Assembly (NCBI GenBank): GCA_041389885.1
Contig: JAWKRB010000006.1
Span: forward strand, 195,101 to 259,100
DNA from: Polyangiales bacterium
Lineage (GTDB): Bacteria; Myxococcota_A; Polyangia; Polyangiales; Ga0077539
Direction: 5' to 3'
DNA: 64,000 bases
Shown here: positions 2,804 to 24,799 of the stretch, one piece after another
Layout of the letters: each line of letters starts with the position of its first letter
Position numbering within the stretch: position 1 is the first letter of the stretch
Notes under the pieces: generated by a model
Databases searched by the model: none
Told to the model about the DNA's origin: nothing
What the model saw: the letters and a program-made list of their open reading frames with translations, nothing else
Made by a program: the position numbers and the translations under genes

Positions 2804-5992
<3,189 letters not shown>

Positions 5993-6199
5993 CGCGTAGC
6001 CTTTGGGTGTCGGGGGATGCAGGTCGCCGCGCCGGAGCAGGGGCGCGCCGGGAGCGGGAAGGCGCGGCAGCCTAGTCGCCGCCGTGCGGCGTGGCAACGT
6101 GTCTCGACCCGAGAACCCGCCGCGCCCGGCGGAACTTCCGACCCGGGCGATTGACAGGGCCGAGGTGGCGGCCTTAGGTGCCGCGCCGGAGCGAGAACC

Positions 6200-6526
6200 A
6201 TGGAAGACGCAACACGCCAGCGCATTCAAGACCTCATCGACCAGAACAAGGTCGTGCTCTTCATGAAGGGCACGCGGCACTTTCCGCAGTGCGGCTTCTC
6301 GGGGGCCGTCGTGCAGGTGCTCAACGGGACCGGGGCGAAGTACGAGACCGTGAACGTGCTCGCCGACCCGTCGATCCGCGAGGGCATCAAGGAGTTCGCG
6401 AGCTGGCCCACGATCCCGCAGCTGTACGTGGGGGGAAAGTTCGTGGGCGGCTGCGACATCGTGCGCGAGCTGAGCACCCGCGGAGAGCTCGCCGCGATGC
6501 TCCAGGAGGTCGGCGCGGTCGGGTAG
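6200..6526 (+). CDS. grxD: Monothiol glutaredoxin (Grx4/GrxD family)
   Basis: 108 aa with the CGFS active site ([14 protein letters not shown]) and [19 protein letters not shown]. Confidence 0.9.
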
Positions 6527-6642
6527 CGCCCCCGAGCTCGACCCCGCGACCGGGGCGAACGCCCGCGCCCCTCCGACGATCACCACCCGCGTGACGATCT
6601 GGGGTACAGTCCGCCGCCCCGCGCAGGACCATGTGACCCGAA

Positions 6643-9210
6643 ATGACCCAGAACGCACACCGACCCCGCCTCGCCGACCTCGCCCTCGTCACCTACCTCG
6701 CCCCGATGCTTCAGGGGCGCCGCGTCGCCGTCGCGGGGAGCACCTCGGGTGAGGTGGCGCTCCGCCTCCGCGCCCTGGGCGCGCACACCGTGATCTGCTT
6801 CGGCGGCGTCGGTGAAGACCTCGCCGTGCGAGCGCTCACCCCAGGCGCCGTCGCGGCGTTTCATGGGCGCATCGACGTGCTGGTGATCCCCGACGCCACG
6901 GCGGTGCCCTCGCTGGTCGCCCTCCTCGACGAGGCCCGACGCGCGCTGGGCTCCGAAGGGGTCGTCGTCGTGGGCGCAGAGGCCCCGCAGTCGCCCCGTC
7001 CGATGGAGCCGACCGGTCGAGAGGGCACCACGGCCTACCACGACCTGTACGACCTCTGCGCGGCGCGCTTCTCGAACGTTCGCATGTTCGGTCGGGGGCC
7101 CTTCCTCGGGTACACCCTCGCGGCCTTCGACGACGCGAGCGATCGGGTGGCGCTCGACACCCGGCTGATCGATGGGGACCCGGCGCGCCCAGAGTCGTTC
7201 ATCGCCATCGCGAGCGACGCACCCGTCGAGCTTGACCCCGTCGCGCTGGTGCAGGTCCCCGACACCCTCATCGAGGCGCTGCGAGACGCCGGCGGCAAGG
7301 AGCTTCGCGAGAAGCTCCACGATCGAGAGCAGAAGCTCAAGGAGGTCGAGGCCGCCAGCGCCGAGCGGTGGGTGAAGATCCAGCGCTTCGAGCACGGCCT
7401 CAAGGAGCTCGAGGAGGAGAACCGCAAGGCCCGCGAGAAGGTCGTGCGCGCCACCAAGGAGCTCGAAGACGAGCGCAAGCTCCGACAGCGGGTCGAGCTC
7501 GACGCGCAGATGTCGCGCCGCGCGCCCGAGCTCCCCAAGACGCCCGACCTCGCCCCCGAGCTCCAGCGCGCCCGCAAGGAGCTCGCCGAGCTCCGCGAGG
7601 CCGCCGCGAGGGAGCAGGCGGCGCGTGACGCCGAGCTCGCGAAGCTCAAGTCTGCCCTGGAGCGAGAGACCGCCGAGCGCGCCGCCGCGCAGCTCGCGCT
7701 CGCGTCGCGGGCCGAGACGGCCGCGGGCCTGGAGGCCTCGCTGCGCGCGGCCGCGGAGGAGCGCGACGCGCTGCGAGAGGCCGAGCGCGCCGAGCGCGAA
7801 GCCCTCCAGGCTGAGCGCGCGCGCGTCGCGGAGCTCGAGCGCGAGCTCGACGAGACCCAGGCCACCGAGGCCGAGCTCCAGGCGCTCCTCGAGGCGGCGC
7901 AGTCGGCGCAGCCCGCGGCCCCGCCCGTCGACGACCGGGCGCTCCGCGCGCTGCGCGACGAGCTCGACGCCACCAGGGCGAGCCTCGCCGCGCTCCGCGC
8001 AGCGCACGACGCCCAGGGGCTTGACCTCGACAGGCTGCACGCCGAGCGCGACGCCGTGAAGTCCGAGCTGGCCGCCGCGCTCGCGACGCAGCAGACGCTC
8101 AAGGCCGACCTCGCCCAGGCGCTCTCGCGCCCGGCGCTCGACGACTCCGCCCACGAGGTCGCCGCCCTCGAGGCGCGCCTCGCCGACCGCGCCACCGAGC
8201 TGCTCCGCATGACCGCGCTGCGCGACGACGCGCTCACCGCCGTGCGCGAGCTCACGATGTCGACGCGAGCTCCGGTCAGCGTGACCCGCGACGACGCGCG
8301 CGACGCCCTGGAGCCTGAGCTGCGCGGGCTGCGCGAGCGGGTCTCGCTGCTTGAGGCCGAGGCGATCGCCTTCGCGGGCCAGAGCCAGCAGGCCATGTGG
8401 AAGGTCGAGGAGCTCGAGGCGGCCCTCGCGCTCGCCCGGTCCCAGCTCGCCGCGCGCACCGCGCCGCCCGAGGCCGGGGCGACCGCCGCGGAGCTCAGCT
8501 CGCTGCGCGCGGAGAACGGCGCGCTCGAGGCGAAGCTCGCGCAGGCGGGGATGGAGATCGACGGGTTCAGGGCGGGCTACCAGCGCCGGATCCTGGAGCT
8601 GGAGCTCGAGATCGATCGACTGCTCCGGGCGCTCGAGGTCGCGGGCTCGCAGACCGCCGCCGAGTCGGACGCGCAGCTCGCCTCGGTGCGCCGACAGGCC
8701 GCCGAGGCCGCCGCGGAGCTGCAAGGCGTTCGATACCGCATGTGCGAGGCCGAGTCGGCGCTCTCGGCGCGGTCGGCGCCGGCGGTCGCGCCCGTGGCGG
8801 TCGAGGTCCGCGCGGACCAGGCGCTCACCGATCTGGGGCAGACCGCGGAGCGCCTCGCGGCGACCGAGGAGGCCCTGCGGGAGGTGCGGCTCCGGCTGCG
8901 GGCGACCGAGGCCGAGCTCGCGGCTTCGCGCCGGGAGCAGACCGTCCTCGCCGAGCGCGTCGACGAGGCCGCCGCGCAGCTCGACGAGCGCGACCGGCGC
9001 GACGCCGCCGCCGCGCAGCGTCACCGCGAGCAGCTCGTCGCGCTGCAAGACCGCGTGACGAGCGCGGAGCTCCGGGTGCAGTCGCAGCGAGAGCTCCTCG
9101 GGGGCGTGCGGTCGAGCGTGTCGTCGATCCTCGCCGACGGGCGCGGGGCGCTCGTGGTGCATGACCTGTTGCAGATCCTCCGCACGGTCGAGTCCAGCGA
9201 CGAGGGCTGA
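6643..9210 (+). CDS. Large coiled-coil protein with an N-terminal alpha/beta (pseudo-receiver or Rossmann-like) domain
   Basis: 855 aa. The N-terminal ~200 aa are globular ([30 protein letters not shown]). The next ~650 aa are heptad-rich with many E/R/A/L ([33 protein letters not shown]...). The stop overlaps the start of the next gene (ATGA). Confidence 0.75.
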
Positions 9211-9839
9211 TGGGGGCGTGCGGCGCCGAGTGCGGCATCACGCGGCAGCGCGACCGAGAGCGTGAGGTCGCGAGGCGCGTCGCGCGCGCGGTGTGGCCGG
9301 AGGGTCGACGCGCGGCGTCGGGCGCCCTCCGCGGCCTGGGCGTCGACCCCGAGCGGGTGAGCGCGCTCGCGGCTCGGCTCGTCGAGACCCTCCCCGTCGC
9401 CGTGCTCGAGGAGCCCGAAGAGCCCGACCGCGCACCGTCGATCTACTGCATCGCCACCGTCGCGGACGAGACCTGGGTCGGCTTTCGCTGCGGGCGCAGC
9501 CCGAGGCCCGCGCACCGCGTCGAACTCGGGCTCCGCGTGGCCTTCTCGCCCTTCGGTCCGTACGCGACGCTTCAGGAAGTGCATCTCGAAGCAGACGTCG
9601 ACGACGAGGGTGTCTGGATCGAGGAGCGCCGGCTCGCGGGGGTCGAGGACCGTCGCATGCAGCACCTGGTGCGCGGGGTTCAGGGCGCCCTCCGCAAGGC
9701 CCGAGTCACGGCGCTCGACGCGGCCTTCCTCGCGGAGCCGTTCGGCGACGGCACCCTGTGGTCGGCGCTCTTCGACGCCGAGCCCGCGGTCGCGACCCGC
9801 GGGGACTACCTGCCCGCGGGGGCGCCTCCCGCGCCCTGA
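9210..9839 (+). CDS. Hypothetical protein, translationally coupled to the coiled-coil gene
   Basis: 209-aa ORF whose start overlaps the upstream stop (ctgATGg). Composition looks like coding sequence. No recognisable domain. Confidence 0.55.
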   Translation: MGACGAECGITRQRDREREVARRVARAVWPEGRRAASGALRGLGVDPERVSALAARLVETLPVAVLEEPEEPDRAPSIYCIATVADETWVGFRCGRSPRPAHRVELGLRVAFSPFGPYATLQEVHLEADVDDEGVWIEERRLAGVEDRRMQHLVRGVQGALRKARVTALDAAFLAEPFGDGTLWSALFDAEPAVATRGDYLPAGAPPAP

Positions 9840-11257
9840 CGGAGGCGGATCACGTGCACCTCGGTGCGTCGGTTCAGGGTCCACGCGTCGGGGGTCTGCC
9901 GGGGGTCGAGCGGGCGGTCGGAGCCGTAGCCCGCGGCGCGGAGCCGTGAGGGGGCGACGCCTCGGCTGGTGAGGTACAGCACCGCGGTCTCGGCGCGCCT
10001 GCGAGACAGCGCGAGGTTGGCCGCGCGCGGGCCGCGGGCGTCGGTGTGGCCCTGGACCTCGACCAGCTCGATCTCGGGGTGCTGGATGAGCAGGCTCGCG
10101 AGGGCGTCGAGGGTCTCGAACGACGCGCGCCCCACGAGGTTCGCGCTCCCGCGCAGGAAATTCACGTCGCCCCGCAGCGAGATGACCCGGTGCTCGGGGT
10201 CGAGGGCGACGGGGGGCGCGGAGGCGTCTGGGCAGCCGTCGTCGTCGTCGACGCCGTTCAGGTCCTCGGGCTCGTCGATGCACCGGTCGACGCCGTCGCG
10301 GACGCCGTCGTGGTCGCGGTCGCCGTCGGGGCACCCTGGACGGGCGGGGTCGGGGTGCTCGCCCGCGCGCTCGGTCGGGCAGCGGTCCTCGTCGTTGAGG
10401 GTGCCGTCCCCGTCGTCGTCGGGGGAGGGGCACCCCGGTCGGGCGGGGTCGGGGTGCGGACCCTGCGGCTGCGTCACGCAGTGGTCGTCGGGGTCGAAGA
10501 CCGTGTCGAAGTCACTGTCGAGGGTCGCGCACCCTGGCCTCAAGGGGTCAGGGCGAACGCCCTGGGGAGCGCGGGGGCACAGGTCCTCGGCGTCGGGCAC
10601 GCCGTCGCCGTCGTCGTCGGCCGGGGCGCGCGCCTGGCTCACCGGCGCGGGGACCTCGGGCTCGACGCGCGCTCGAGGCGGGGCCGACGCGAAGCGCACG
10701 GCGAGCGTGAGCCCCGCGGAGAAGTACCGAGCGTCGTCGGGGAACCGCTCCGGCGTGCCCGCGCTCGAGTCGGGCTGGACCATCTGTCCGTACCGAATCG
10801 ACGGGCCGAGGGCGAGGTAGTCGCCGAGGCGAAACTCGAAGCCCAGGCCCACGTCGAGGGCGAGCCGCGCGACGTCCCCCGTGAGCCCGACGCCGGCGTG
10901 CGCGTCGAACCAGAGCCGCCCCGCGCGCCCGACGCGCGGCTCGAGGCGCAGGCCCACCGAGGGCGCGAAGACCCACCCCGTGCCCTCAGCGCCCCCGGGG
11001 AACACCCAGTTCGTCACCCCCACGTCGAGCGCGAGCGGGTCCGCGAGCGTGATCCCCAGCCGCGCGCTGCCCTGCCACATCGCGTCGAAGCCGCGCGCGC
11101 GCCGCTGATAGTCCGAGAGCATCGCGCCGTACCCGCCCTCGAGGCGAACCGCGGCGCGCTCTCGACCCTGCGCGACGGCCTCGCGCGGCGCGGCGCACGC
11201 GAGCGCCAGCGCCGCGGTCGCGGCCCCGAAATGCCTGGGTGAGAGGAGGTTGCGCAT
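9806..11257 (-). CDS. OmpA-family outer membrane protein with thrombospondin type 3 (Ca-binding) repeats
   Basis: Starts at the internal MRNLLSPRHFGAATAALALACAAP (signal peptide). Has a beta-barrel-like N-domain, TSP3-like D-rich repeats (DDDGDGVPDAEDLCP, DDDGDGTLNDEDRCP, DRDHDGVRDGVDRCID, DDDDGCPD) and a C-terminal OmpA domain (VQGHTDARGPRAANLALSRRRAETAV). Confidence 0.85.
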   Translation of the reverse strand: MRNLLSPRHFGAATAALALACAAPREAVAQGRERAAVRLEGGYGAMLSDYQRRARGFDAMWQGSARLGITLADPLALDVGVTNWVFPGGAEGTGWVFAPSVGLRLEPRVGRAGRLWFDAHAGVGLTGDVARLALDVGLGFEFRLGDYLALGPSIRYGQMVQPDSSAGTPERFPDDARYFSAGLTLAVRFASAPPRARVEPEVPAPVSQARAPADDDGDGVPDAEDLCPRAPQGVRPDPLRPGCATLDSDFDTVFDPDDHCVTQPQGPHPDPARPGCPSPDDDGDGTLNDEDRCPTERAGEHPDPARPGCPDGDRDHDGVRDGVDRCIDEPEDLNGVDDDDGCPDASAPPVALDPEHRVISLRGDVNFLRGSANLVGRASFETLDALASLLIQHPEIELVEVQGHTDARGPRAANLALSRRRAETAVLYLTSRGVAPSRLRAAGYGSDRPLDPRQTPDAWTLNRRTEVHVIRLRQGAGGAPAGR

Positions 11258-11457
11258 CCTACGGCGTCCGTCGGCTCGCGCGCGGTTGCGTCGCGCCGAG
11301 GCGCAGAGTGTCCCACCGCGGCGACCGGAGCGGCAACATCGCCGTGCGAGACAGCGTGTTGCTTGACCGCTCGTCTCGCCAGAACCTACGCTGCCGACTC
11401 TGCCCACGGGCACGGGACGACCTTCTGGCCCGCACCGCGTGGAGGGAGAAGGCGACG

Positions 11458-14400
11458 ATGTCGCGCGCGATCTCGAGACCCACCTTCGCCCTCTGCGCGC
11501 TGATCACCACGCTCCTCGACGGGTGCACCTTCGGGACGGCGATCGTGGGCGGCGACGCGAGCGGCGACCTCGGCGTGTTCGACGCGACCGTCGACCTCGG
11601 CTCGAAGCTCGACGCCGCCGAGGCCTCGCCCGCCGACGTCCCGGTCGTCGAAGACCTCGCGCCCGACGTCCCCGACGCGCCTTCGCCCGAGTGCCTGCGC
11701 AACGCCGACTGCCTCGACCCGAGCCGCCCGGTGTGCGACCTCGGCGCGAACCGCTGCGTCCAGTGCCTCCCGTCTCCCGACACCTGCCCCACGCGGAGGT
11801 TCTGCGACCCCGGCACGCTCACGTGCCAGGACGGCTGCCGCGGCGATCAAGACTGCGTGCTCAGCAGCTCCGGGGGCGACGGGGGGCTCGTGGTGCGGGT
11901 CTGCGACCTCAGCCGGCGCATCTGCGTCGCGTGCCGGGGCGACGCCGAGTGCCCCGCGGGGACCCAGTGCGCCGGCGGCCTCTGCGCGCCCTCCTGCGGG
12001 GGAGGGCGGGCCTGCCTCCCCAGCGAGACCTGCTGCGCCGGCGCGTGCGTCGACCTGCGAGAGAACGACGCGAACTGCGGCGCGTGCGGCGCCTCGTGCG
12101 CGGCGCCCAACGCCGCCGGGCGCTGCCGCGCGGGGCGCTGCGAGGTGGGCTCGTGCATCGGCGCCTTCGGCGACTGCGACGGCGACGCCTCCAACGGCTG
12201 CGAGACGAGCCTTCGCTCGGCCACCGACTGCGGCGCCTGCCGCTCCGCGTGCCCCGTGCGACCCTTCGCGGCGACGGTGTGCGACACGGCCTCGGCGACC
12301 TGCGCGCTGCGCTGCGACCCCTCACGAGCCGACTGCAACCTCGTCGCCGACGACGGCTGCGAGGTCGACGTGCGCGAGAGCGTCGACCACTGCGGCGCGT
12401 GCGGCCGCGCGTGCGCCGCGGCCCACGGCACCGCGCGCTGCGACGAGGGGCGGTGCGCCATCGCCTCGTGCGAGGCGGGGTTCTCCGACTGCGACGGCGA
12501 CCCGCTCAACGGGTGCGAGGTCGACACCCGCGCGAGCGCGGCGCACTGCGGCGCGTGCGGATCGCGCTGCGCCGCAGGGGCGAACGCGTCGGCCCAGTGC
12601 CGCGACGGCGGGTGCCAGGTGAGCTGCGAGGCGGGCTTCGCCGACTGCGACGGGCGCGTCGACGACGGCTGCGAGACCGACCTGCGCGCCTCGACGGAGC
12701 ACTGCGGGGCCTGCGGCGCTGGGTGCGTCGCGCAGGGCGGCGTCGCGCGCTGCGCCTCGGGGCGCTGCGAGATCGCGAGCTGCGAGGCGGGCTTCGCCGA
12801 CTGCAACGGGCGCGTCGACGACGGCTGCGAGACCGACCTGCGCAGCAGCGCGACCGCGTGCGGCGCGTGCGGGGTGCGGTGCCCGGGGTCGCAGCGGTGC
12901 GCGCGGGGAGCGTGCGTGCTCGAGTGCCCGGTCTCGCAGCAGGTGTGCTCCGGCGCGTGCGTCGACCGGCTCACCGACCCGCGCAACTGCGGCGGCTGCG
13001 GGAGCGTGTGCGCCTCGAACACGCGCTGCGTCGCCGGGGAGTGCAGCCTCGACTGCGCCGCGGGCCTCGCGGCCTGCGACGGACGCTGCGAGAACCTCCT
13101 CACCTCTGCCGCGAATTGCGGCGGCTGCGGCGTGGCCTGTCCGGCGCGACCGGGCGCGACGCCGACGTGCCAGGGCGGCCTCTGCGGCAGGTCGTGCCTG
13201 CCCGGCCGCGCGGACTGCGACGGGGTGGCGAGCAACGGCTGCGAGGTCGACCTGCGCGCCGACGCGAGCAGCTGCGGCACCTGCGGCTTTCGCTGCGTGG
13301 TGGCCAACGGCGTGGGCGCGTGCGTGAACGGGGGCTGCGGCATCGCGGCCTGCGCCGCGGGGTTCGCAGACTGCGACGGCGCCGCCTCGGACGGCTGCGA
13401 GACGCCCGTTCGCCGCGACGACCGCAACTGCGGGGCGTGTGGGAACGTCTGCGCGACCGGGACCTCGTGCGTGGACGGGGCCTGCGTTCCGCCCCCCGGC
13501 TCGCTCTTCGTCGACGCGCCGACGGTGATCAACACCATCGCCGCGGCGGCTCAGGCAGGCGCGGGTTCCCTCACGGTCACCCTGGGCTCGCCGGTGGGTG
13601 TGTTCCTCCCGGGCCAGCGGGTGATGCTGCACCAGACCCAGGGGCCCGAGGGCGTCGCCGGTCGGTACGAACTACGGCGCGTGGCCGCGGTGCAGGGCGC
13701 GCTGCTCACCCTCGACGCGCCGCTCTCGAACGCCTACGTGAGCGCGGGGAACTCCCGCGCGCAGATCCTCGTGGTGCCCGAGTACTCCAGGGTCACCGTC
13801 ACCGCGAGGGGGACCCTGACCGCGCCCCCCTGGGACGGTCGCGCGGGCGGGGTGCTGGCGGTCTGGTCGCGGGGGGACGTCGACGTGCTCGGGCGGGTCA
13901 GCATGGACGGTCGGGGCTTTCGGGGCACCCAGCACGGCTGCGCCCTCGGGCGGCTCTTTCAGTGCTCCGTCGGGGTGCAGGGCGAGTCGTTCCTCGGGCC
14001 TGGGCGCGCGTCGGTCTTGGCCAACGGCGGAGGCGGGGGCGGCGGCTCTTCGGGGCAGGACTGCGCCGCTGGAGGGGGAGGCGCCAACGGCGCGAGCGGT
14101 CGCGTAGGGACGAGCGGCGATTGCAACGGCGGCTCGATCGGCGAGTGCACCTCGGTGTGCCCCAACGTGGGCGGCGACGGAGGCGCGGCTCCGCGCAGAG
14201 ACCCCCTCGGGGGGCTCGCGCACCTGGGCGGCGCGGGCGGCGAAGGCGGCGCGGATGAGGACGGGGCCTTCCCTGGCGCGGGAGGCAACGGCGGCGGCTT
14301 CGTCTGGATCCGCGCCGAAGGGGCGCTCACCGTCAGCGGCACGGTCTCTTCGAGCGGGGCCGACGGGCGCAACGGCAACCAGTCCGACTGCGGCGGCCAG

Positions 14401-14640
14401 GGGTGCGGAATGGGCGGCGGCGGAGGCGGCGCGGGAGGCTCCATCCGCTTCGATGTGGACGGGGCCGCGATGTTGGGCGATGGAAGGGTGCTTGCGGTCG
14501 GTGGGACCGGGGGGCTGTGCTCCTGTCGCATCATCGACCTGTCCCGCGCCGCGCCTGGCGGCGGTGGTGGTGGCGGGCGGGTCGCCGTGCGCGCCCAGCG
14601 CGTCGTCGGGCAGACCTTCCCGACGGCGGAGCAAGAGTAG
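11458..14640 (+). CDS. Large lipoprotein with ~10 tandem cysteine-rich repeat modules and a Gly-rich C-terminal region
   Basis: Lipoprotein signal (MSRAISRPTFALCALITTLLDGC) with a GGAGGG Shine-Dalgarno sequence upstream. Carries repeated ~50-aa modules (CGACGxxC...GRC...SCEAGFADCDGxxDDGCETDLR). The C-terminal 350 aa are Gly-rich (GGGGGGGSSG..., GGAGGEGG). The upstream part of ORF 11239.. is read-through. Confidence 0.8.
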   Translation: MSRAISRPTFALCALITTLLDGCTFGTAIVGGDASGDLGVFDATVDLGSKLDAAEASPADVPVVEDLAPDVPDAPSPECLRNADCLDPSRPVCDLGANRCVQCLPSPDTCPTRRFCDPGTLTCQDGCRGDQDCVLSSSGGDGGLVVRVCDLSRRICVACRGDAECPAGTQCAGGLCAPSCGGGRACLPSETCCAGACVDLRENDANCGACGASCAAPNAAGRCRAGRCEVGSCIGAFGDCDGDASNGCETSLRSATDCGACRSACPVRPFAATVCDTASATCALRCDPSRADCNLVADDGCEVDVRESVDHCGACGRACAAAHGTARCDEGRCAIASCEAGFSDCDGDPLNGCEVDTRASAAHCGACGSRCAAGANASAQCRDGGCQVSCEAGFADCDGRVDDGCETDLRASTEHCGACGAGCVAQGGVARCASGRCEIASCEAGFADCNGRVDDGCETDLRSSATACGACGVRCPGSQRCARGACVLECPVSQQVCSGACVDRLTDPRNCGGCGSVCASNTRCVAGECSLDCAAGLAACDGRCENLLTSAANCGGCGVACPARPGATPTCQGGLCGRSCLPGRADCDGVASNGCEVDLRADASSCGTCGFRCVVANGVGACVNGGCGIAACAAGFADCDGAASDGCETPVRRDDRNCGACGNVCATGTSCVDGACVPPPGSLFVDAPTVINTIAAAAQAGAGSLTVTLGSPVGVFLPGQRVMLHQTQGPEGVAGRYELRRVAAVQGALLTLDAPLSNAYVSAGNSRAQILVVPEYSRVTVTARGTLTAPPWDGRAGGVLAVWSRGDVDVLGRVSMDGRGFRGTQHGCALGRLFQCSVGVQGESFLGPGRASVLANGGGGGGGSSGQDCAAGGGGANGASGRVGTSGDCNGGSIGECTSVCPNVGGDGGAAPRRDPLGGLAHLGGAGGEGGADEDGAFPGAGGNGGGFVWIRAEGALTVSGTVSSSGADGRNGNQSDCGGQGCGMGGGGGGAGGSIRFDVDGAAMLGDGRVLAVGGTGGLCSCRIIDLSRAAPGGGGGGGRVAVRAQRVVGQTFPTAEQE

Positions 14641-14677
14641 CCTGCGGGGTTCGCGTTTCGAATGCGAGGACAGCGAC

Positions 14678-17011
14678 ATGACGGAGCGGAATGATTCCAG
14701 CGGCGGCGACTCGGGGGCCCCCCCCGCTCGAGAGTTCGAGCAGGGCGACAAGGTCCTCGATCGATGCACGGTAGACCGTTGCGTTCGGCGAGACCGACTC
14801 GCCTCGTTCAACACCGCACGCGGCGACGGACCCGAGGGAGAGGGGCTCTTCACGGTGTGGTCGGTGCACGCCGGCATCGTGCACCGCTCCGAGCGCGCCT
14901 CGACGGTCTTCTTCGATGAGATGGCGTCGACGAGCGCCCTGAACCACGCCTCGATCCCCGCCGTGGTCGCCTTCGACCCCATGGCCCCGGGTCCCGTCGT
15001 CATCGCGCGCTTCGTGCAGGGCGTCTACCTGCGCGACCGCCTCGCGGACGGGGAGCTCCTGAACACGCGCGAGGTCTCTCGCATCGTGCTCGCCGTCGCC
15101 GACGCCCTCGCGGTGCTCCACCGCGCGAGCCCTCCGGTGTTTCACCGCGCGGTCACCCCCGAGCGCGTGCTCAGCGCGGGCGAGACCGTCTTTCTCGAGG
15201 AGTGCGGGTACCTCCACGCCGTCGTCTCCGCGGGCATGCTCAGCGAGAAGGAGCTGGAGACCTTCGCGCAGCCCGGATACCGCCTGCCGAGCCGGGTCTC
15301 CTCCGCGGGCGGCGCGGCGATCGACCGGTTTCAGCTGGCGGTGCTCGCCTTCGAGGCCCTCACCGGGCAGCTGCCCTTCGGCGCCGCGACCGTCGCCGAG
15401 CTCGACGACCTGACCCAGCGCGCGCCCTCGGCCCGCGGCGCGCGGCCGACGCTCCCGGCGGAGATCGACGAGGTCTTTCGCCGCGCCTGGAGCCCCTCGG
15501 CCGCGGACCGCTACGCCACCACCACCGAGTTCGCCGCCGACCTCGCGCGGGTGCTCGAGCCTCGAGACTCGGTGCCCCTCGGCGAGCTGAAGCCCGACGT
15601 CGCCGCGACGATCTTCTCCAGCCCCTCCCAGCGTCCGGAGGTCGCCGACGAGATCGACCGCGCGCTCGACGCGGCGCTGGGCGAGCCCCGCTCGGAGCCC
15701 TCGCCCGCGCAGCGAAAGATCGACGTGGAGCGGCTGCTCCCGATGGTGAGTGCGGCGCTGCAGGCGAACGAGCGCACCTCGTCGGTGCCGCCTGAGCGAC
15801 GCAGCGGCATGGAGCTCCCGCCCCTCTCACGCGCGCTGGACCTGCCGCCGTCGAAGCCCACGCTCCTCGGCGCCGCGACCGGCAGCGCCAAGGGCTCCGC
15901 GCCGTTCAAGATCCGTCCCGCGTCGGTCGCGGCGCCGACGAAGCCCGAAGCCCCACCCCCCGCGGAGGCGCCCGAGCCTGGCTCGCGAGAGAGCCGCCCC
16001 CTCGACCTCACCGAAGAGGCCGAGCTGCAGGAGCGGCAGTCCCAGCTCGAGCTGGCTTCAGACCCGGGCGACCGCTCGGTGGTCGAGCTCGATGAGGCGC
16101 TCCTCGAGCCCTCGACCACGAACACGAACCTCCAGCGGATCATGGATGAGATCGCGTCGTTTCGTCCGTCGGAGCGCTCGCCGATGCTCGAGGAGGAGGA
16201 GCTGATCCGCTTCGGCGATCCCCTCGACGACGGGGTGACCCGCGCGGGACAGGACGAAGAGCTCGTGCGCGGGGAGCTCGCCGGGGCGGGGCGTTCTGGC
16301 GATTCGCCGGCCTCGAGCCCGCCGGTCCACGTGGGGACGATCCGCGCCCCGGTGGCGCCGCCCCAGAGCCTTCAGGCGAAGAAGACACCGCTGCCGCCCC
16401 TGCCTCCGCTCGAAGGCGGCGTCGGTCGGGGTACGCCTCTCTCCTCGATCGCGCCGCTTGGCCGAGGAAAGCCCACCACGCTGCCCCCCGACGACGCGGG
16501 GGATCACCCGGGCTCGGGCGCGCACGAGGTCGTCGTGCCTCGACCTCCCGTCTCGCGGTCGGGCTACGGCAAGGCGGCGGGACTGCCGACGACGACGCCC
16601 CCGCCGACGCGGCTCAACACGCCGATTCCGATGGGCGCGCGACCGGCCCGCCGCTCGGTGCCGCCAGGGACGGTCTCGCGGCCCGCGGCCAGCGCTCCCC
16701 CGGTGGACGAGGCGCCTCGGTCGGAGCCGGCGAAGGTCGAGCAGGCCGTGGCGCTCTCGCGAGAGCCCGACGCGCTCGCGCAGGTGGCGCCGACGGTCGC
16801 CAAGCTCACGGCGCTCGCGTCGCTGATCGCGACGGTGGGGCTGATCTTCGCGGCGCGGCAGCTCGACGCGTACATGGCCGACCCTGGGGTACTCCGTGCG
16901 GGAGCTGCGCGCGGAGCCGCTGCTCCGGCGCCCGACGCGGGCATGGCGGTCGACGATCTCGGCGGGGGCCGTTCCTCGGCGAACGCGACGACGCCTCGGT
17001 CGAGCTCATGA
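14678..17011 (+). CDS. Membrane-anchored Ser/Thr pseudokinase-domain protein with a long Pro-rich disordered region
   Basis: Starts at MTERNDSSGG. Kinase fold with a degenerate catalytic loop (FHRAVTPERVL in place of HRDLKPEN), no DFG motif, and a conserved alpha-F/G region (DRFQLAVLAFEALTGQLPFG). Followed by ~350 aa of P/E/S-rich low complexity and a C-terminal TM segment (VAKLTALASLIATVGLIFAARQL). Confidence 0.7.
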   Translation: MTERNDSSGGDSGAPPAREFEQGDKVLDRCTVDRCVRRDRLASFNTARGDGPEGEGLFTVWSVHAGIVHRSERASTVFFDEMASTSALNHASIPAVVAFDPMAPGPVVIARFVQGVYLRDRLADGELLNTREVSRIVLAVADALAVLHRASPPVFHRAVTPERVLSAGETVFLEECGYLHAVVSAGMLSEKELETFAQPGYRLPSRVSSAGGAAIDRFQLAVLAFEALTGQLPFGAATVAELDDLTQRAPSARGARPTLPAEIDEVFRRAWSPSAADRYATTTEFAADLARVLEPRDSVPLGELKPDVAATIFSSPSQRPEVADEIDRALDAALGEPRSEPSPAQRKIDVERLLPMVSAALQANERTSSVPPERRSGMELPPLSRALDLPPSKPTLLGAATGSAKGSAPFKIRPASVAAPTKPEAPPPAEAPEPGSRESRPLDLTEEAELQERQSQLELASDPGDRSVVELDEALLEPSTTNTNLQRIMDEIASFRPSERSPMLEEEELIRFGDPLDDGVTRAGQDEELVRGELAGAGRSGDSPASSPPVHVGTIRAPVAPPQSLQAKKTPLPPLPPLEGGVGRGTPLSSIAPLGRGKPTTLPPDDAGDHPGSGAHEVVVPRPPVSRSGYGKAAGLPTTTPPPTRLNTPIPMGARPARRSVPPGTVSRPAASAPPVDEAPRSEPAKVEQAVALSREPDALAQVAPTVAKLTALASLIATVGLIFAARQLDAYMADPGVLRAGAARGAAAPAPDAGMAVDDLGGGRSSANATTPRSSS

Positions 17012-17484
17012 CCCCGTCCGTGATCGACGCGGCCACCGCCGACGCGGTCACCGAGGACGCGCCCGCGGACGGGTCGACGCCCGTCGACGCGGCCGTCGGC
17101 GCTGACGTCGTCGAGCTCGCCGACGTCGTCGCGGCCCCCGCGGTCTCGACGCCCCGACGTCCGCCGGTGGCGCCGCCGCCCGCGCCGTCGAACACGCCCG
17201 GCGACGCGGTGCACGCTCGGGTCTGGACGCAGCTCTCGCGACGGATCGCAGACTGCGTCGAGGGCGTCGACAGCCACACGTCGGTGACGGTGCTGGTGCG
17301 CTTCGACGGACCGACGGGGATGGTCCGACGCATTCGCAGCCGCGGGATCTTCGCCGAGCCCCCGATCGGTCCGTGCATCGAGCAGGCGGCGACGGGGATT
17401 CGCGTCGCGCCCTTCGAAGCGCCGACCTGGGACACCACCTTCTCGTTCCCCATCGCGCCGCCCCGGTGGCGCCCGCCGCAATGA
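17008..17484 (+). CDS. Hypothetical protein, translationally coupled to the pseudokinase gene
   Basis: The ATG overlaps the pseudokinase stop (tcATGa). 158 aa with an acidic, low-complexity N-terminus and a C-terminal globular segment. No family recognised. Confidence 0.5.
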   Translation: MTPSVIDAATADAVTEDAPADGSTPVDAAVGADVVELADVVAAPAVSTPRRPPVAPPPAPSNTPGDAVHARVWTQLSRRIADCVEGVDSHTSVTVLVRFDGPTGMVRRIRSRGIFAEPPIGPCIEQAATGIRVAPFEAPTWDTTFSFPIAPPRWRPPQ

Positions 17485-17501: not shown

Positions 17502-19310
17502 TCAGGGCGCAGGCACCGAGATCGCCGCGACCCTTCGCCCGCCTGATCCAAACCACAGCACCGCGCCGGTGGGGTCGTCGCTCCGGCGACAGTAGCTCTG
17601 CGACCAGTCGCAGCGCAGCGCCGCGCACCGCTGACCCGCGAAGGGACCCAGGAGCGCCTCGACGGATCCCGCGCGGGTGATGTCCCTCGCCGGCACGCGG
17701 CGCGGCTGACCGCGCAGGGGCTGGTTCGGCTCTGAGTACGTGATCACGGCGAAGCTCCCTCCGGTCGCGCGCTGCAGGGTGCGACCGTCGGGGGTCTCTG
17801 CCAAGCGATCGAGCACCGCGCAGGCGATCTCGGACGAGGCGGGGTCGGCCCTGAACGCGCGGAGGTGCGCGTCGACGGCGGCGACGCGGTCGTCTCCGAA
17901 GGTCGCGCGCAGCATGTCGAGGCGATGGCGGAGCGCGCGCTGAGACACCGTCGCGGGCGCGCTCTGCGAGGCGATCGAGATCATCGACGCGCCGTCGTTC
18001 GCGTGCCCGAGCGAGACCAGCTCGAAGCCGCCGTCGCGCTCGTAGTCACGGATGTGGAGCTCGGGGTCGTCGGTGACGCGGTCGCCGAGGGAGGTGTCGT
18101 CGAAGGGTCTCGGCGCCCTCCCTGGCGAGACGAGGTAGGCGCGAACGGCGCGCCCGCCGCGGTGCAGCCCCACGCCGAAGGCGACGACGCGGTCCTCCCC
18201 GCGCGAGGCGCTCACGACGTGGCCGCGAACGCCGCCATCGAGGGTGAGCGCGCCGGCCATCGCGACATCGGCGGCGTCGTCGCTGCGCTCGGAGCCCCAG
18301 GCCGCCGTCCGCGCCGAAGAGGCCGCGGGCGCGGGCGCGGGCGCCGCGGCGATGATGGCCGCGATGGTCACCCGCCCTCCCTCCTTTCGCAGGAGAACCT
18401 GCGCCGGAGCCGCGCCCAGGGGCAGAGGGACCTGCGGGATCGCGATGCAGCGGTCGCCGAGGGAGCAGTCCATCGCCGGCGCGACCTCACGAATGAGCGA
18501 GAGCGTGCGCGCGATGTGGGGGTTGGTGGGGTCGCCCTGCGGGGATACATAGTCGATCTCTTCGAAGAGGCCGACCTGCCACGCGCGCAGCGTGGGCGCG
18601 CCCTCGGGAGAGAGCGCGTCGAGGAGCGCGTTGGGGCCCCCTCGCGCGATGCGCACGACGGTGGCCTCGGCCTCGCGCGCCGAGGGGTCGGTGGGAGGCA
18701 CCGGGAAGCGGATGCGCCGCTCGAACTCCGCGGCGTCGTTCGCGCGCAGGAGCGGCGCCTCGAGCGGCGAGAGCACGCGCACCGCCGTGGGCGCGCCGCC
18801 GGGGCGGGGCAGGGGAAAGATCGCGAGGAGCTTGCCGTCGGCGGGCTGGTCTTCGAGCTCGACGCCCCGGCCGATGAGGTAGACCCAGCCCTGCACGATG
18901 CGCCCGAACGCGATCTGCGCGCCGACGGGCCAGCGCCCGACGCGGTGCACCTCGTCGCCGCGGGTGTCGTGAAACACCGCCCAGACATCCGAGACCTCGC
19001 GACCCTCGCCCGTGGCGAACACCGCGGAGAAGCGGCCGTTGTAGACGTCGGTGCAGAGCGGGCCGAAGACCACCGTGCGGCCGGCGGTGAGGCGGCGGAG
19101 CGCCGAGGCGGTCTCGGGAGCGCAGCGGGCGGCGGAGTCGACGCGAGGCGGCGCGGTCTCGCCGGCGACGGCGCGGGCGCCCGCGGGGCCGACGCTCCTG
19201 GAGCTCCCCACCGTGCGCGCGGGGCGGGGGGGAGGGGCCGTGGCCTCGCATCCGCCGCCGGCGGCGAGGGCCGCGGCGAGGAACGTTCGGGGTAGGTCGC
19301 GCAGGTCCAT
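17502..19310 (-). CDS. Hypothetical lipoprotein
   Basis: Internal start MDLRDLPRTFLAAALAAGGGC (lipobox). ~600 aa with a coding-like composition. No recognised domain. Confidence 0.6.
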   Translation of the reverse strand: MDLRDLPRTFLAAALAAGGGCEATAPPPRPARTVGSSRSVGPAGARAVAGETAPPRVDSAARCAPETASALRRLTAGRTVVFGPLCTDVYNGRFSAVFATGEGREVSDVWAVFHDTRGDEVHRVGRWPVGAQIAFGRIVQGWVYLIGRGVELEDQPADGKLLAIFPLPRPGGAPTAVRVLSPLEAPLLRANDAAEFERRIRFPVPPTDPSAREAEATVVRIARGGPNALLDALSPEGAPTLRAWQVGLFEEIDYVSPQGDPTNPHIARTLSLIREVAPAMDCSLGDRCIAIPQVPLPLGAAPAQVLLRKEGGRVTIAAIIAAAPAPAPAASSARTAAWGSERSDDAADVAMAGALTLDGGVRGHVVSASRGEDRVVAFGVGLHRGGRAVRAYLVSPGRAPRPFDDTSLGDRVTDDPELHIRDYERDGGFELVSLGHANDGASMISIASQSAPATVSQRALRHRLDMLRATFGDDRVAAVDAHLRAFRADPASSEIACAVLDRLAETPDGRTLQRATGGSFAVITYSEPNQPLRGQPRRVPARDITRAGSVEALLGPFAGQRCAALRCDWSQSYCRRSDDPTGAVLWFGSGGRRVAAISVPAP

Positions 19311-19435
19311 CGCGCGGGACCGTACCCAATTCGGCGCGCGGGAGACACCGCGAGTCGCACCGCGCGCCGCCGAAATGCACAAGGCCCCGACCGTCGTAGA
19401 CGATCGAGGCCCGTGCGTCTCCGTCAGTCAGGGGA

Positions 19436-21109
<1,674 letters not shown>

Positions 21110-21400
21110 TCACTGCTCGATCACGCCGAGGATGTCTTCCTCGCGAATGATCAGATGCTCGACCTCTTCGATCTTGACCTCGGTGCCCGAGTACTTGCCG
21201 AAGAGGATCTTGTCGCCGGGCTTGACCTCGAGCGCGCGCACCTTGCCGTCGTCGCCGACCTTGCCATTGCCCACGGCGATGACCTGGCCCTCGATGGGCT
21301 TCTCCTTCGCGGAGTCGGGGATGTAGAGGCCACCCTTGGTGCGGGTCTCGGCCTCGAGGCGCTTGACGAGGATGCGATCCTGGAGCGGGCGAATCTTCAT
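21110..21400 (-). CDS. groES: Co-chaperonin GroES
   Basis: [46 protein letters not shown]; 96 aa. Confidence 0.97.
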
Positions 21401-22798: not shown

Positions 22799-24799
22799 TC
22801 AGGTCGGTTCGCCCTCGTTGGCGGAGCGGTTCAGGTTGAGGATCTTCGCTCCGCCCACGTAGTCCTGCGTCTCGTAGCGCTGCACCGAGCCCAGCCGACG
22901 GACGATCAGCGCCATGCGCTCGGCCTCGCGGAGGATCACCTCGGCGGCGCGGCCGATCGCCACCGGGTCGTGGGTGCAGCGCCCGATGAGCTCGGCGTAG
23001 CCCTGCACCGCCGTCAGTGGCTGGTTGAGCTCGTGCGCCGCCGCCCCCGCGACCTCGCCGACGACCGCCTGACGCTCGCCGACCGCGAGCTCCTCCTGCG
23101 CCTTGGCGAGCCGCCCCTCGAGCCGGAGCCGCTCTCTCAGGTCTGAGAAGATCCCCACCGTGGCGCCCTGGGGGTCGCTCACCAGGGCGACGGAGAGCTG
23201 CACCGGGATCCGCTCGCCGCTGCGGGAGATCACCTCGGTGCGCACGCCTTCGAGGTTGCCGTGGGGGGAGGCTCGCAGCCTCGCCATGATGTCCCGCGCG
23301 GCGCCGGCGGGGTACAGGGTCTTCACCAACCGCCGCCCGATCATCTCCTCGCGGGAGTACCCGAGCACCCGCTCGGCGGCCCGGTTGAACAGCAGCACGC
23401 TGCCGTCTCGGGCGCCCGCGATGATCGCGTCGGGGGAGCTCTCGATCAACGACGAGAGGAACTCCTTGGTGCGCGCGAGCTCGCGGGCCGTCGCCCGGTC
23501 GTCGGTCACGTCGCGAAAGGTCAGCAGCACGGCGTGGTTCTCGCGCAGCAGCGACGCGGTCGAGACCGACAGCGTGCGCACCGCGCCGTCGCGGCGACGG
23601 ACGCGAACGTCGGTGTCGGCGGGGAAGCGCCGCGCGCGAAACCCCTGCCGCAGGGCCCTCGCCAGGCCGCGGTCCTCGGGCGCGACGATGAAGTGCGCGA
23701 AGGCGCCCCGCAGGTCGGCGTCGGCGTACCCGGTGATCTCCGCGGCGCGCGGGTTCGCGAACAGCACCCGACCGTTCGGGTCGACCACCACCATGCCGTC
23801 GGCCGCCGAGACGAAGAGGTCGGCGTAGCGCTCCAGGAGCCGGGCGCGGTGCTCGGCCTCCAGCCGCGCGTCGGTCACGGCCTGGCTCTGCTCGCGCAGG
23901 CGCTGCATCTCGTTCGCGTTGCGGAGCGCGACGCCGGTCGCGTTGGCGATCACCTCGCAGAGCGAAGACTCGCGATGGTCGAGGGGCCCCCGGCGCCCCC
24001 GACCCCGGAGCACGAGCACCCCGTGCACGCTGCCGTCGCAGAGGATCGGCAGGAGGGTCAGCGAGGTGAGCTGCACCCCCGCGAGGTGCGCGCGCACGCC
24101 GTCGAGGAGGGGGTGGCTGGCCACGTCGTGAATCACCAGCGGCGCGCCGCGGCGGAGCACCTGCTGCACCTCGGGGTAGCGATCGAGCTCCACCGGGTGG
24201 TTGTGCAGGTCGGCGTCGTCGCTCGCCGCGACCACGTAGCCGGTGCGCTCGCCCACCTGACCGACGACGATCGAGCAGCTCTCGACCCTCACCAGCTCCG
24301 CCACGCGGCGCACGACCGTGGACAGAATCTCCCGCGGATCGAGGCGCGAGGCGAGGGTGCGCGTGAGCTCCACCATCGCCTGCGCGTCGCGCTCCTTCGA
24401 CGCGAGCTCATGGACATACGAGCGCAGGCGAAGCTGCGCGCGGATGCGGGCGAGGAGCTCAGGCCGTCGGCAGGGCTTGCGGAGGAAGTCGTCGGCTCCG
24501 GCGGCGAAGACCCGCTCGACCTCGGCGTCGTCTTCGAGCGCGGTGAGCACGATCACCGGGAGGTCTCGGGTGGCGTCGTGGGCCCGCAGCACGTTCAGCA
24601 CCGCGTAGCCGTCGCTGGGCGGCAGCACGAGGTCGAGGATCATCACCCCCGGCGGCGACTCGAGGGCCGACGCGATGGCCTCGTCGGCGCGGGCGAAGGA
24701 CGAGACCCGGTAACCAACGCGGGCGAGCCAGCCGCCGATCAGACGACGGGTGACCGCGTCGTCGTCGACCAGCAGAATCCTTGGCCCCTCGTCTCCCAT
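22799..24799 (-). CDS. Response-regulator receiver / GAF / PAS / PAS / HisKA protein lacking an HATPase_c domain
   Basis: REC domain ([14 protein letters not shown]...[12 protein letters not shown]...DFLRKP), a GAF-like middle, two PAS-like segments, and an H-box ([18 protein letters not shown]). The protein ends ~60 aa after the H-box with no N/G1/G2 boxes. Confidence 0.8.

Follow-up and report, generated by a model that had tools for sequence, protein, structure and literature searches.

In the model of Myxococcus xanthus TraA, a PA14 head stands on a cysteine-rich tandem-repeat 'rigid stalk' with a lipid-type C-terminal tag, and the OmpA-domain protein TraB is its partner (PMC3325183). Two other points of comparison are AgmC, a surface-related adventurous gliding motility protein of Myxococcus, and the MXAN_6577-like cysteine-rich proteins defined by NCBIfam model NF041328. 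The gene described here lies at positions 11458-14640 (+) of a 64,000-nucleotide (nt) stretch of a Polyangiales bacterium genome (contig JAWKRB010000006.1, assembly GCA_041389885.1), which is called the window below. It encodes a 1060-amino-acid (aa) predicted lipoprotein in which MXAN_6577-like repeats are joined to a C-terminal domain that resembles the N-terminal domain of AgmC. The protein is like TraA and TraB in combining a head, a Cys-rich stalk and a lipid-type anchor, with an OmpA-domain gene adjoining. With moderate confidence, we read it as a lipid-anchored surface adhesin or receptor built of anchor, stalk and head.

A preliminary description of this DNA had reported a Cys-rich secreted protein of the lipoprotein type at this position, and the gene proved to be real and correctly located. 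Its open reading frame (ORF) spans 11239-14640 (+), with the start at the ATG at 11458. The GC content at third codon positions (GC3) is 0.935, which matches the expectation for a coding frame in a 73% GC genome (the window has ~73% GC). Promoter and terminator scans at the locus found nothing. The preliminary description had allowed for a full-length match to a characterized family; no functionally characterized protein with such a match was found, and the entry that is 100% identical is labeled 'MAG: hypothetical protein R3A48_02990 [Polyangiales bacterium]' in NCBI (P0001). From the N-terminus on, the protein comprises a lipobox-bearing signal peptide, an acidic linker of 54 aa, a Cys-rich region of ~600 aa and a Gly-rich C-terminus of 380 aa. 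It has 110 Cys (10.4%), 98 of them within aa 79-676 and 10 within the C-terminal domain, and 17.8% Gly, which rises to 26.6% in aa 723-1060. His and Met make up 0.7% and 0.5%. The features of the gene, all on the forward strand, are as follows.

11441..11448 (+): strong Shine-Dalgarno sequence, GGAGGGAG, 9 nt before the ATG, read directly from the sequence

11458..11526 (+): predicted type II (lipoprotein) signal peptide, aa 1-23, MSRAISRPTFALCALITTL-LDG-C, with Cys23 as the predicted lipidated residue

11527..11688 (+): acidic linker without Cys, aa 24-77, with 16.7% Asp and a mean column conservation of 0.42

11689..12075 (+): N-terminal Cys-rich region, aa 78-206, 21 Cys with a spacing unlike that of the CGxCG modules, ending in a partial segment like a short module

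12076..13497 (+): array of ten CGxCG modules, aa 207-680, comprising seven long modules, two short ones and one terminal half module

13498..13827 (+): head subdomain 1, a predicted small beta-barrel, about aa 681-790, with strands at about aa 702-790 and with HQTQG, E738, Y760 and Q769

13828..14640 (+): head subdomain 2, a Gly-rich beta-solenoid in the predicted structure, about aa 791-1060 plus the stop codon

The C-terminal region was previously taken for a Gly-rich tail of ~350 aa. The Gly-rich region is there, but it comprises 380 aa (681-1060) and is an autonomous, highly conserved domain with a predicted fold. AlphaFold, run with a 31-sequence alignment, gave a pLDDT of 93.1 and a pTM of 0.93. 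Long motifs are kept across the whole region, namely HQTQG, PxWxGxxGG, GRGFRG, QGES, NGGGGGGG, GQDC.AGGGG, GGAGGEGG.DEDG..PG.GGNGGG and CGMGGGGGG.GG, and the conservation of non-Cys columns is 0.60 in the head versus 0.55 in the stalk. A disordered or low-complexity tail was rejected on the basis of the pLDDT of 93 and this motif-level conservation. In the model, W792, which is conserved family-wide, lies at the N-terminal edge of the solenoid subdomain. The solenoid has four rungs (VLAVWS.., FVWIRA.., SIRFDV.. and RVAVRA..), and an invariant Gly run stands directly before each of them. An insert of ~125 Gly-rich residues in the solenoid is predicted confidently, has no regular secondary structure by DSSP and carries clade-specific Cys pairs.

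Only one curated model, NCBIfam NF047640 (AgmC N-terminal domain), recognizes the head. It matches aa 732-1048 over profile positions 103-398 of 412 with 118.1 bits (E = 4.6e-34), which is below the equivalog cutoff of 275 bits. The head is thus homologous to the N-terminal domain of AgmC without being an AgmC equivalog. NF041328 and NF047640 were the only NCBIfam matches of the lipoprotein at E <= 1. For the head family, neither a Pfam model nor a solved relative was found, and literature searches on AgmC returned nothing relevant.

The family is large. When a flank-free head profile (A4) was searched against 1.84 billion representative proteins, matches clustered at 50% identity numbered 7,246 at E <= 1e-3, 5,087 at E <= 1e-10 and 1,061 at E <= 1e-30, and NF047640 recognized every diverse domain instance tested. 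The domain may be N-terminal, internal or C-terminal. Among the 150 best matches, proteins reach 7,697 aa and carry up to seven matched stretches. Three to seven copies occur in giant proteins (3,000-7,700 aa) of other lineages, Chloroflexota among them, whose names are uninformative (P0241-P0249). Named genomes with the domain are mostly Myxococcota (Polyangiales, Myxococcales, Bradymonadaceae), and a few belong to Bacteroidia/Flavobacteriales, Chloroflexota and Hydrogenedentes. The source names of the diverse head-bearing proteins are uninformative. Their partner domains are Laminin_G_3, PA14, Kelch, C-type lectin, PKD, cadherin, Big_13, a type IX secretion system (T9SS) sorting tail, Peptidase_C13 and RCC1.

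Structure comparison of the model placed the head in the beta-helix class. It resembles beta-helical adhesins and passengers, i.e. the two-partner secretion (TPS) domains of HMW1, FHA, EtpA and HxuA as well as VacA p55, Ag43 and Hap, at the level of the class only, with ~100-136 of 359 residues superposed at <=21% identity. A Foldseek search of the head against the Protein Data Bank (PDB) gave nothing at E <= 1e-3. What sets the head apart from the beta-helical adhesins is that invariant poly-Gly runs cap its rungs, an unusual feature, and that a small beta-barrel precedes the solenoid. Neither a TPS domain nor a C-terminal translocator barrel was matched in the lipoprotein by Pfam or NCBIfam, and it has no TPS or autotransporter secretion apparatus. 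An RTX or Ca-binding beta-roll was also considered; it was not supported, as Pfam gave no match even at E = 10, and the GGEGGADEDG acidic cluster that bears on this test is clade-specific. Across 231 non-redundant instances of the head, the residues conserved family-wide are Gly and E738, Y760, Q769, W792, R822, E843 and R1041, while the DEDG cluster and the Cys pairs are clade-specific. E738 and E843 are the only acidic residues in the family-wide set, and no catalytic signature is apparent in it.

The second half of the finding concerns the rod. The preliminary description could not assign the exact spacing of its modules to a characterized protein, but curated families do match them. NF041328 scores 174.5 bits against a cutoff of 100 in five stretches, the best of which is aa 440-576. 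The CGxCG modules with 8 Cys are common to the family and the lipoprotein. The model covers 145 positions of repeat only, so the lipid anchor and the C-terminal head are outside the family definition. The family has no known function, and nothing relevant to MXAN_6577 was found in the searchable literature. Pfam PF04885 (Stig1) also exceeds its gathering threshold of 24.1 bits, the full-length protein scoring 30.4 bits and the module segment alone 34.3 bits. This match is partial, covering profile positions 37-83 of 85 within two short modules (aa 468-553), and falls short of the whole domain. PF04885 describes STIG1, a plant stigma-specific family of Cys-rich secreted proteins, and its Cys spacing agrees with that of the two short modules. 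In plants, these proteins are secreted signaling peptides of small size. A partial agreement of Cys pattern in a 1060-aa bacterial lipoprotein does not justify transferring this function.

The array starts with a CGxC at aa 207, 258, 312, 364, 416, 468, 511, 554, 606 and 658. The earlier count of about ten modules of ~50 aa holds for these ten units, but only seven are of the ~52-aa type (51-54 aa). Two are 43 aa long and the last (aa 658-680) is a half unit of 23 aa. Nor did the stated 6-8 Cys per module stand, since every full module has exactly 8 and the half module has 5. The ending that had been ascribed to about ten repeats, DCDG...DGCE, is present as C..GF.DC[DN]G....GCE.D in six long modules and as the variant DCNLVADDGCE in module 258. 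The short modules 468 and 511 are STIG1-like and lack the DCDG/GCE ending.

More than 5,500 relatives of the lipoprotein were present among 8,000 candidates scored. An alignment of 22 homologues from independent assemblies was used to assess conservation. All module Cys are invariant in it, as are the Gly and Glu of GCE, and the pattern is far beyond chance. The Cys of the aa 78-206 region, for which no Pfam family was found, are invariant or nearly so. The homologues are 1027-1174 aa long, 20 of the 22 falling within 1027-1095 aa. These tightly clustered lengths exclude an assembly collapse, so the array, as the preliminary description assumed, is not an assembly artefact.

That description had also proposed nucleotide divergence as a check for recent expansion, and this check pointed the other way. 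A single pair of modules reaches 84% at the DNA level, against a background of 65-75% in GC-rich DNA. Protein identity between module pairs is 35-65%, Tandem Repeats Finder (TRF) found only a weak 156-nt period with 3.4 copies, and 7 of the 10 modules best match their positional counterpart in an orthologue of 66% identity. On these grounds a recent repeat expansion was rejected, and the array is best regarded as ancient and not homogenized.

Modeling of one module had been suggested as a check. Three modules (aa 312-467), predicted by AlphaFold with the 22-sequence alignment, reached a pLDDT of 91.5 and showed the same small fold three times, made up of a loop, a beta-hairpin and a short pair of strands that comes with a one-turn helix. 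The structural matches of this model were weak and confined to rod-like tandem disulfide arrays: the calcium-binding epidermal growth factor (cbEGF) modules of fibrillin, Notch EGF, complement control protein (CCP) modules and the tumor necrosis factor receptor (TNFR). Tandem EGF-like and cbEGF arrays such as those of fibrillin and Notch are a eukaryotic extracellular comparison, and the modules here have neither the six-Cys EGF fold nor a Pfam EGF match. Sequence searches of the PDB with the Cys-rich half and with the C-terminal half gave no significant match. Because each module has 8 invariant Cys and a confidently predicted hairpin fold, disulfides are indicated, putatively four per module, which would stiffen the rod. 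A metal-binding scaffold, another early suggestion, found no support in these features.

The N-terminus was examined for lipidation and sorting. The signal peptide has a positively charged n-region (R3, R7) and an h-region, followed by L-D-G-C where the consensus is [LVI][ASTVI][GAS]C. The lipobox position is kept in 18 of the 22 aligned homologues, i.e. those with complete N-termini, and canonical lipoboxes (LSGC, LAGC, ASGC, LSAC and others) are aligned with LDGC there. Cys23 is the predicted site of lipidation. In M. xanthus, Lys at position +2 is an inner-membrane retention signal, and Ala tends to occupy +7 in matrix lipoproteins (PMC3222651). The residue at +2 is Thr here and T, E, D, S, N or V in the homologues, and Lys in none. 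Since it is not Lys, the lipoprotein is probably sorted to the outer membrane, and it is possibly at the cell surface. The residue at +7 is Ile. A FGxxVVGG[DE] motif (11527-11565, aa 24-36) lies at the start of the linker, 1-5 residues past the lipidated Cys, and is kept in all clade-A orthologues, while the remaining linker is poorly conserved. This motif could be a lipoprotein sorting or export signal.

The genes around the lipoprotein gene were compared between orthologue loci. The main neighbors are the following.

9806..11257 (-): OmpA-TSP3 protein, an outer-membrane beta-barrel with TSP3 repeats and an OmpA domain (Pfam OmpA, OMP_b-brl, TSP_3)

14678..17484 (+): kinase-like gene downstream of the lipoprotein gene, with one transmembrane helix and without HRD, DFG, APE and VAxK

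17502-19382 (-): 626-aa protein, convergent with the kinase-like gene, ~534-602 aa in all orthologue loci

6643-9839 (+): 855-aa coiled-coil protein and 209-aa protein, kept only in the closest relative

Five orthologue loci at 50-66% identity were examined: the window, L001, L003, L004 and L036. All five share the block OmpA-TSP3 (-), lipoprotein (+), kinase-like (+), a protein of ~590 aa (-), GroEL and GroES. In each, the OmpA-TSP3 gene is adjacent and divergent and the kinase-like gene adjacent on the same strand, and the DNA farther upstream of the block differs among them. The earlier notion of a run of envelope genes thus holds for the OmpA-TSP3 and pseudokinase genes, which are conserved with the orthologues, but not for the coiled-coil gene. 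The OmpA domain of the divergent neighbor is of the peptidoglycan-binding type. The best NCBIfam match of this neighbor, a distant one, is the outer-membrane exchange protein TraB (NF033763), with 131.6 bits against a cutoff of 700, at aa 269-471 and extending beyond the OmpA domain. The longest ORF for this protein (start 11413) is probably over-extended, with a signal peptide from the Met encoded at 11257.

The gap between the lipoprotein gene and the kinase-like gene is 38 nt with no terminator inside, and in L001 the two overlap by 4 bp. The kinase-like gene is probably co-transcribed with the lipoprotein gene. In the window it is divided between two ORFs, 14678-17011 and 17008-17484, which overlap at ATGA and are read in different frames. 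Its orthologues are single ORFs of 806-1036 aa (972-1036 aa in L001, L003 and L036), and the L001 protein matches the window at 14657-16894 with 59% identity and at 17194-17481 with 84% identity, in different frames. Either the split is real, or it stems from a frameshift or assembly error in an Ala/Pro-rich linker. The 626-aa, 855-aa and 209-aa proteins matched no Pfam family and nothing informative in NCBIfam; the coiled-coil protein has only weak, sub-threshold matches of the SMC type. Farther out are SecA (2804-6658, -), GroEL and GroES (19436-21400, -) and a response-regulator-GAF-PAS-HisKA hybrid kinase (22799-24799, -). The SecA ORF as listed has ~227 residues before the first SecA domain and is probably over-extended at its 5' end.

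Three proteins of ~45% identity (P0054, P0085 and P0101) do not share the synteny and have long modules only. Since P0085 and P0015 come from one assembly, these proteins are paralogues, which explains the apparent loss of synteny; a loss in distant orthologues was rejected. P0054 (L002, 14925-17068) and P0101 (L033, 9212-11316) adjoin MbnP and CCP_MauG genes together with a small response-regulator/histidine-kinase pair, a context common to two unrelated metagenome-assembled genomes (MAGs). It may hint at a copper-related role for the paralogue with all-long modules.

A surface role of the adhesin type is the best reading of the lipoprotein because of the beta-helix fold class of the head, the partner domains of the head elsewhere and the analogy to TraA. 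The match of the head to the AgmC model and the lack of a catalytic signature also count in its favor. Of the 'surface or matrix function' in the preliminary description, this part is retained and the metal-binding scaffold is not. Where the protein sits, that it binds a ligand and that it cooperates with its neighbors is what we infer, as follows. After Sec export the protein would be lipidated at Cys23, and the 54-residue acidic tether would act as a flexible link between the anchor and the rod. The rod of ~600 residues, made of the N-terminal Cys-rich region and nine and a half MXAN_6577/STIG1-like 8-Cys modules, would be locked by disulfides and keep the 380-residue head distant from the membrane. 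The head, with its small beta-barrel and Gly-rich beta-solenoid of the AgmC N-terminal type, would be the ligand-binding part, and its ligand most likely a polysaccharide, a matrix component or a surface ligand. Two partners are probable: the divergent TraB-like OmpA-TSP3 outer-membrane protein, which would link envelope and peptidoglycan, and the transmembrane pseudokinase, whose gene is probably co-transcribed.

Several points weigh against this reading. The Asp at position -2 of the lipobox is atypical, and the 'clear lipobox (LLDGC)' of the first account therefore holds as a lipoprotein-type signal but not as a canonical sequence, though the orthologues are canonical there. A lipoprotein without Lys at +2 could also sit in the outer membrane facing the periplasm. 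The resemblance of the head to known structures extends to the fold class only, and the name of AgmC is the sole experimental link for any family member. Synteny was sampled in fairly close relatives (50-70% identity) and is not shared by the paralogous lineage, so that it argues only weakly for functional coupling to the neighbors.

One alternative concerns localization; we consider it unlikely, though it is the strongest of those weighed here. The protein could be a structural lipoprotein that faces the periplasm, with rod and head held within the periplasm or at the inner face of the outer membrane, and could serve as an envelope spacer or tether together with its OmpA neighbor. The peptidoglycan-binding domain of that neighbor would suit such a role; no surface-export signal was identified in the lipoprotein, the Ile at +7 departs from the Ala tendency of M. 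xanthus matrix lipoproteins (PMC3222651), and the periplasm also permits disulfides. However, an extended stalk of ~600 residues with a head of 380 residues is large for the periplasm. The head occurs elsewhere in giant extracellular proteins with T9SS tails, lectin, cadherin and PKD domains, and Cys-rich stalks of the TraA type are at the cell surface.

Two more far-reaching readings are both rather doubtful. One is that the head stands for a new structural class among extracellular domains, whose invariant poly-Gly runs, possibly as polyglycine-II-like segments, would form one face of a short beta-solenoid. The other is that the head is the sensor of a TraAB-like module in this Polyangiales clade, where a reversed-polarity receptor with a Cys-rich stalk, a TraB-like OmpA partner and a transmembrane pseudokinase may have been assembled independently. 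If the latter were true, contact at the surface would be translated by the module into a response inside the cell.

Improbable, in our judgment, is a cell-cell recognition receptor that works as TraA does, in which homotypic contacts between the heads on different cells would act by way of the TraB-like partner and the pseudokinase to set off a response of the envelope. The logic of anchor, stalk and head is the same, the OmpA-domain partner best matches TraB and the adjoining membrane pseudokinase is conserved. Against this, PA14, TIGR04201 and MYXO-CTERM are all absent, the TraB match falls far short of the cutoff (131.6 versus 700), and the head varies no more than the stalk (conservation 0.60 versus 0.55), unlike a polymorphic recognition domain. 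We give still less credence to an enzymatic head, for example a tailspike-like polysaccharide lyase or depolymerase, which would make the protein a tethered enzyme for matrix remodeling. The residues conserved family-wide disfavor it, and a structural or binding module fits better because of this conservation pattern and the multi-copy occurrence of the domain.

The least probable option makes the Cys-rich array a scaffold for metal binding or redox function, like metallothionein or MopE: the Cys density is 15% over 645 aa, some related proteins carry Pfam PF11617, a MopE-type copper-binding motif, and two members of the paralogous lineage adjoin MbnP and MauG-type genes, which are copper-associated, but PF11617 has no match to the lipoprotein itself, the orthologue clade is not beside MbnP genes, His and Met are rare, the number of invariant Cys per module is even, and the confidently predicted beta-hairpins are typical of disulfide knots.

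Preferring the surface adhesin or receptor, we see the value of the locus in three respects. Myxococcota genomes contain thousands of uncharacterized Cys-rich repeat proteins, of which one conserved architecture could be read clearly here. What had been called a Gly-rich tail proves to be an autonomous extracellular domain with a large family in Myxococcota, Chloroflexota and Bacteroidota and a high-confidence predicted fold, so that curating the domain and determining its structure would be reasonable. Lastly, the lipoprotein is a candidate adhesin for myxobacterial surface biology.

Set beside the known systems, the lipoprotein differs from AgmC in that the shared domain, which is N-terminal in the AgmC model, is C-terminal here and stands behind a Cys-rich rod. 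The polarity relative to TraA is reversed, with the lipoprotein anchor at the N-terminus and the head at the C-terminus. The head is a predicted Gly-rich beta-solenoid in place of PA14, for which Pfam gave no match at E <= 1. The repeats are MXAN_6577/STIG1-like, whereas those of TraA belong to TIGR04201, for which NCBIfam gave no match at E <= 1. A lipobox takes the place of MYXO-CTERM (TIGR03901), which had no match; the protein ends in ...VVGQTFPTAEQE, with no Cys/transmembrane/Arg-rich tag. The partner gene is divergent, while TraA and TraB form a bicistronic operon. Judged by this analogy, the lipoprotein is an independently assembled TraA analogue of reversed polarity and not a member of the TraA family. 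It is an uncharacterized MXAN_6577-like Cys-rich repeat protein fused to a head like the N-terminal domain of AgmC; it belongs to large, already known families, is no new kind of system and overturns nothing known.

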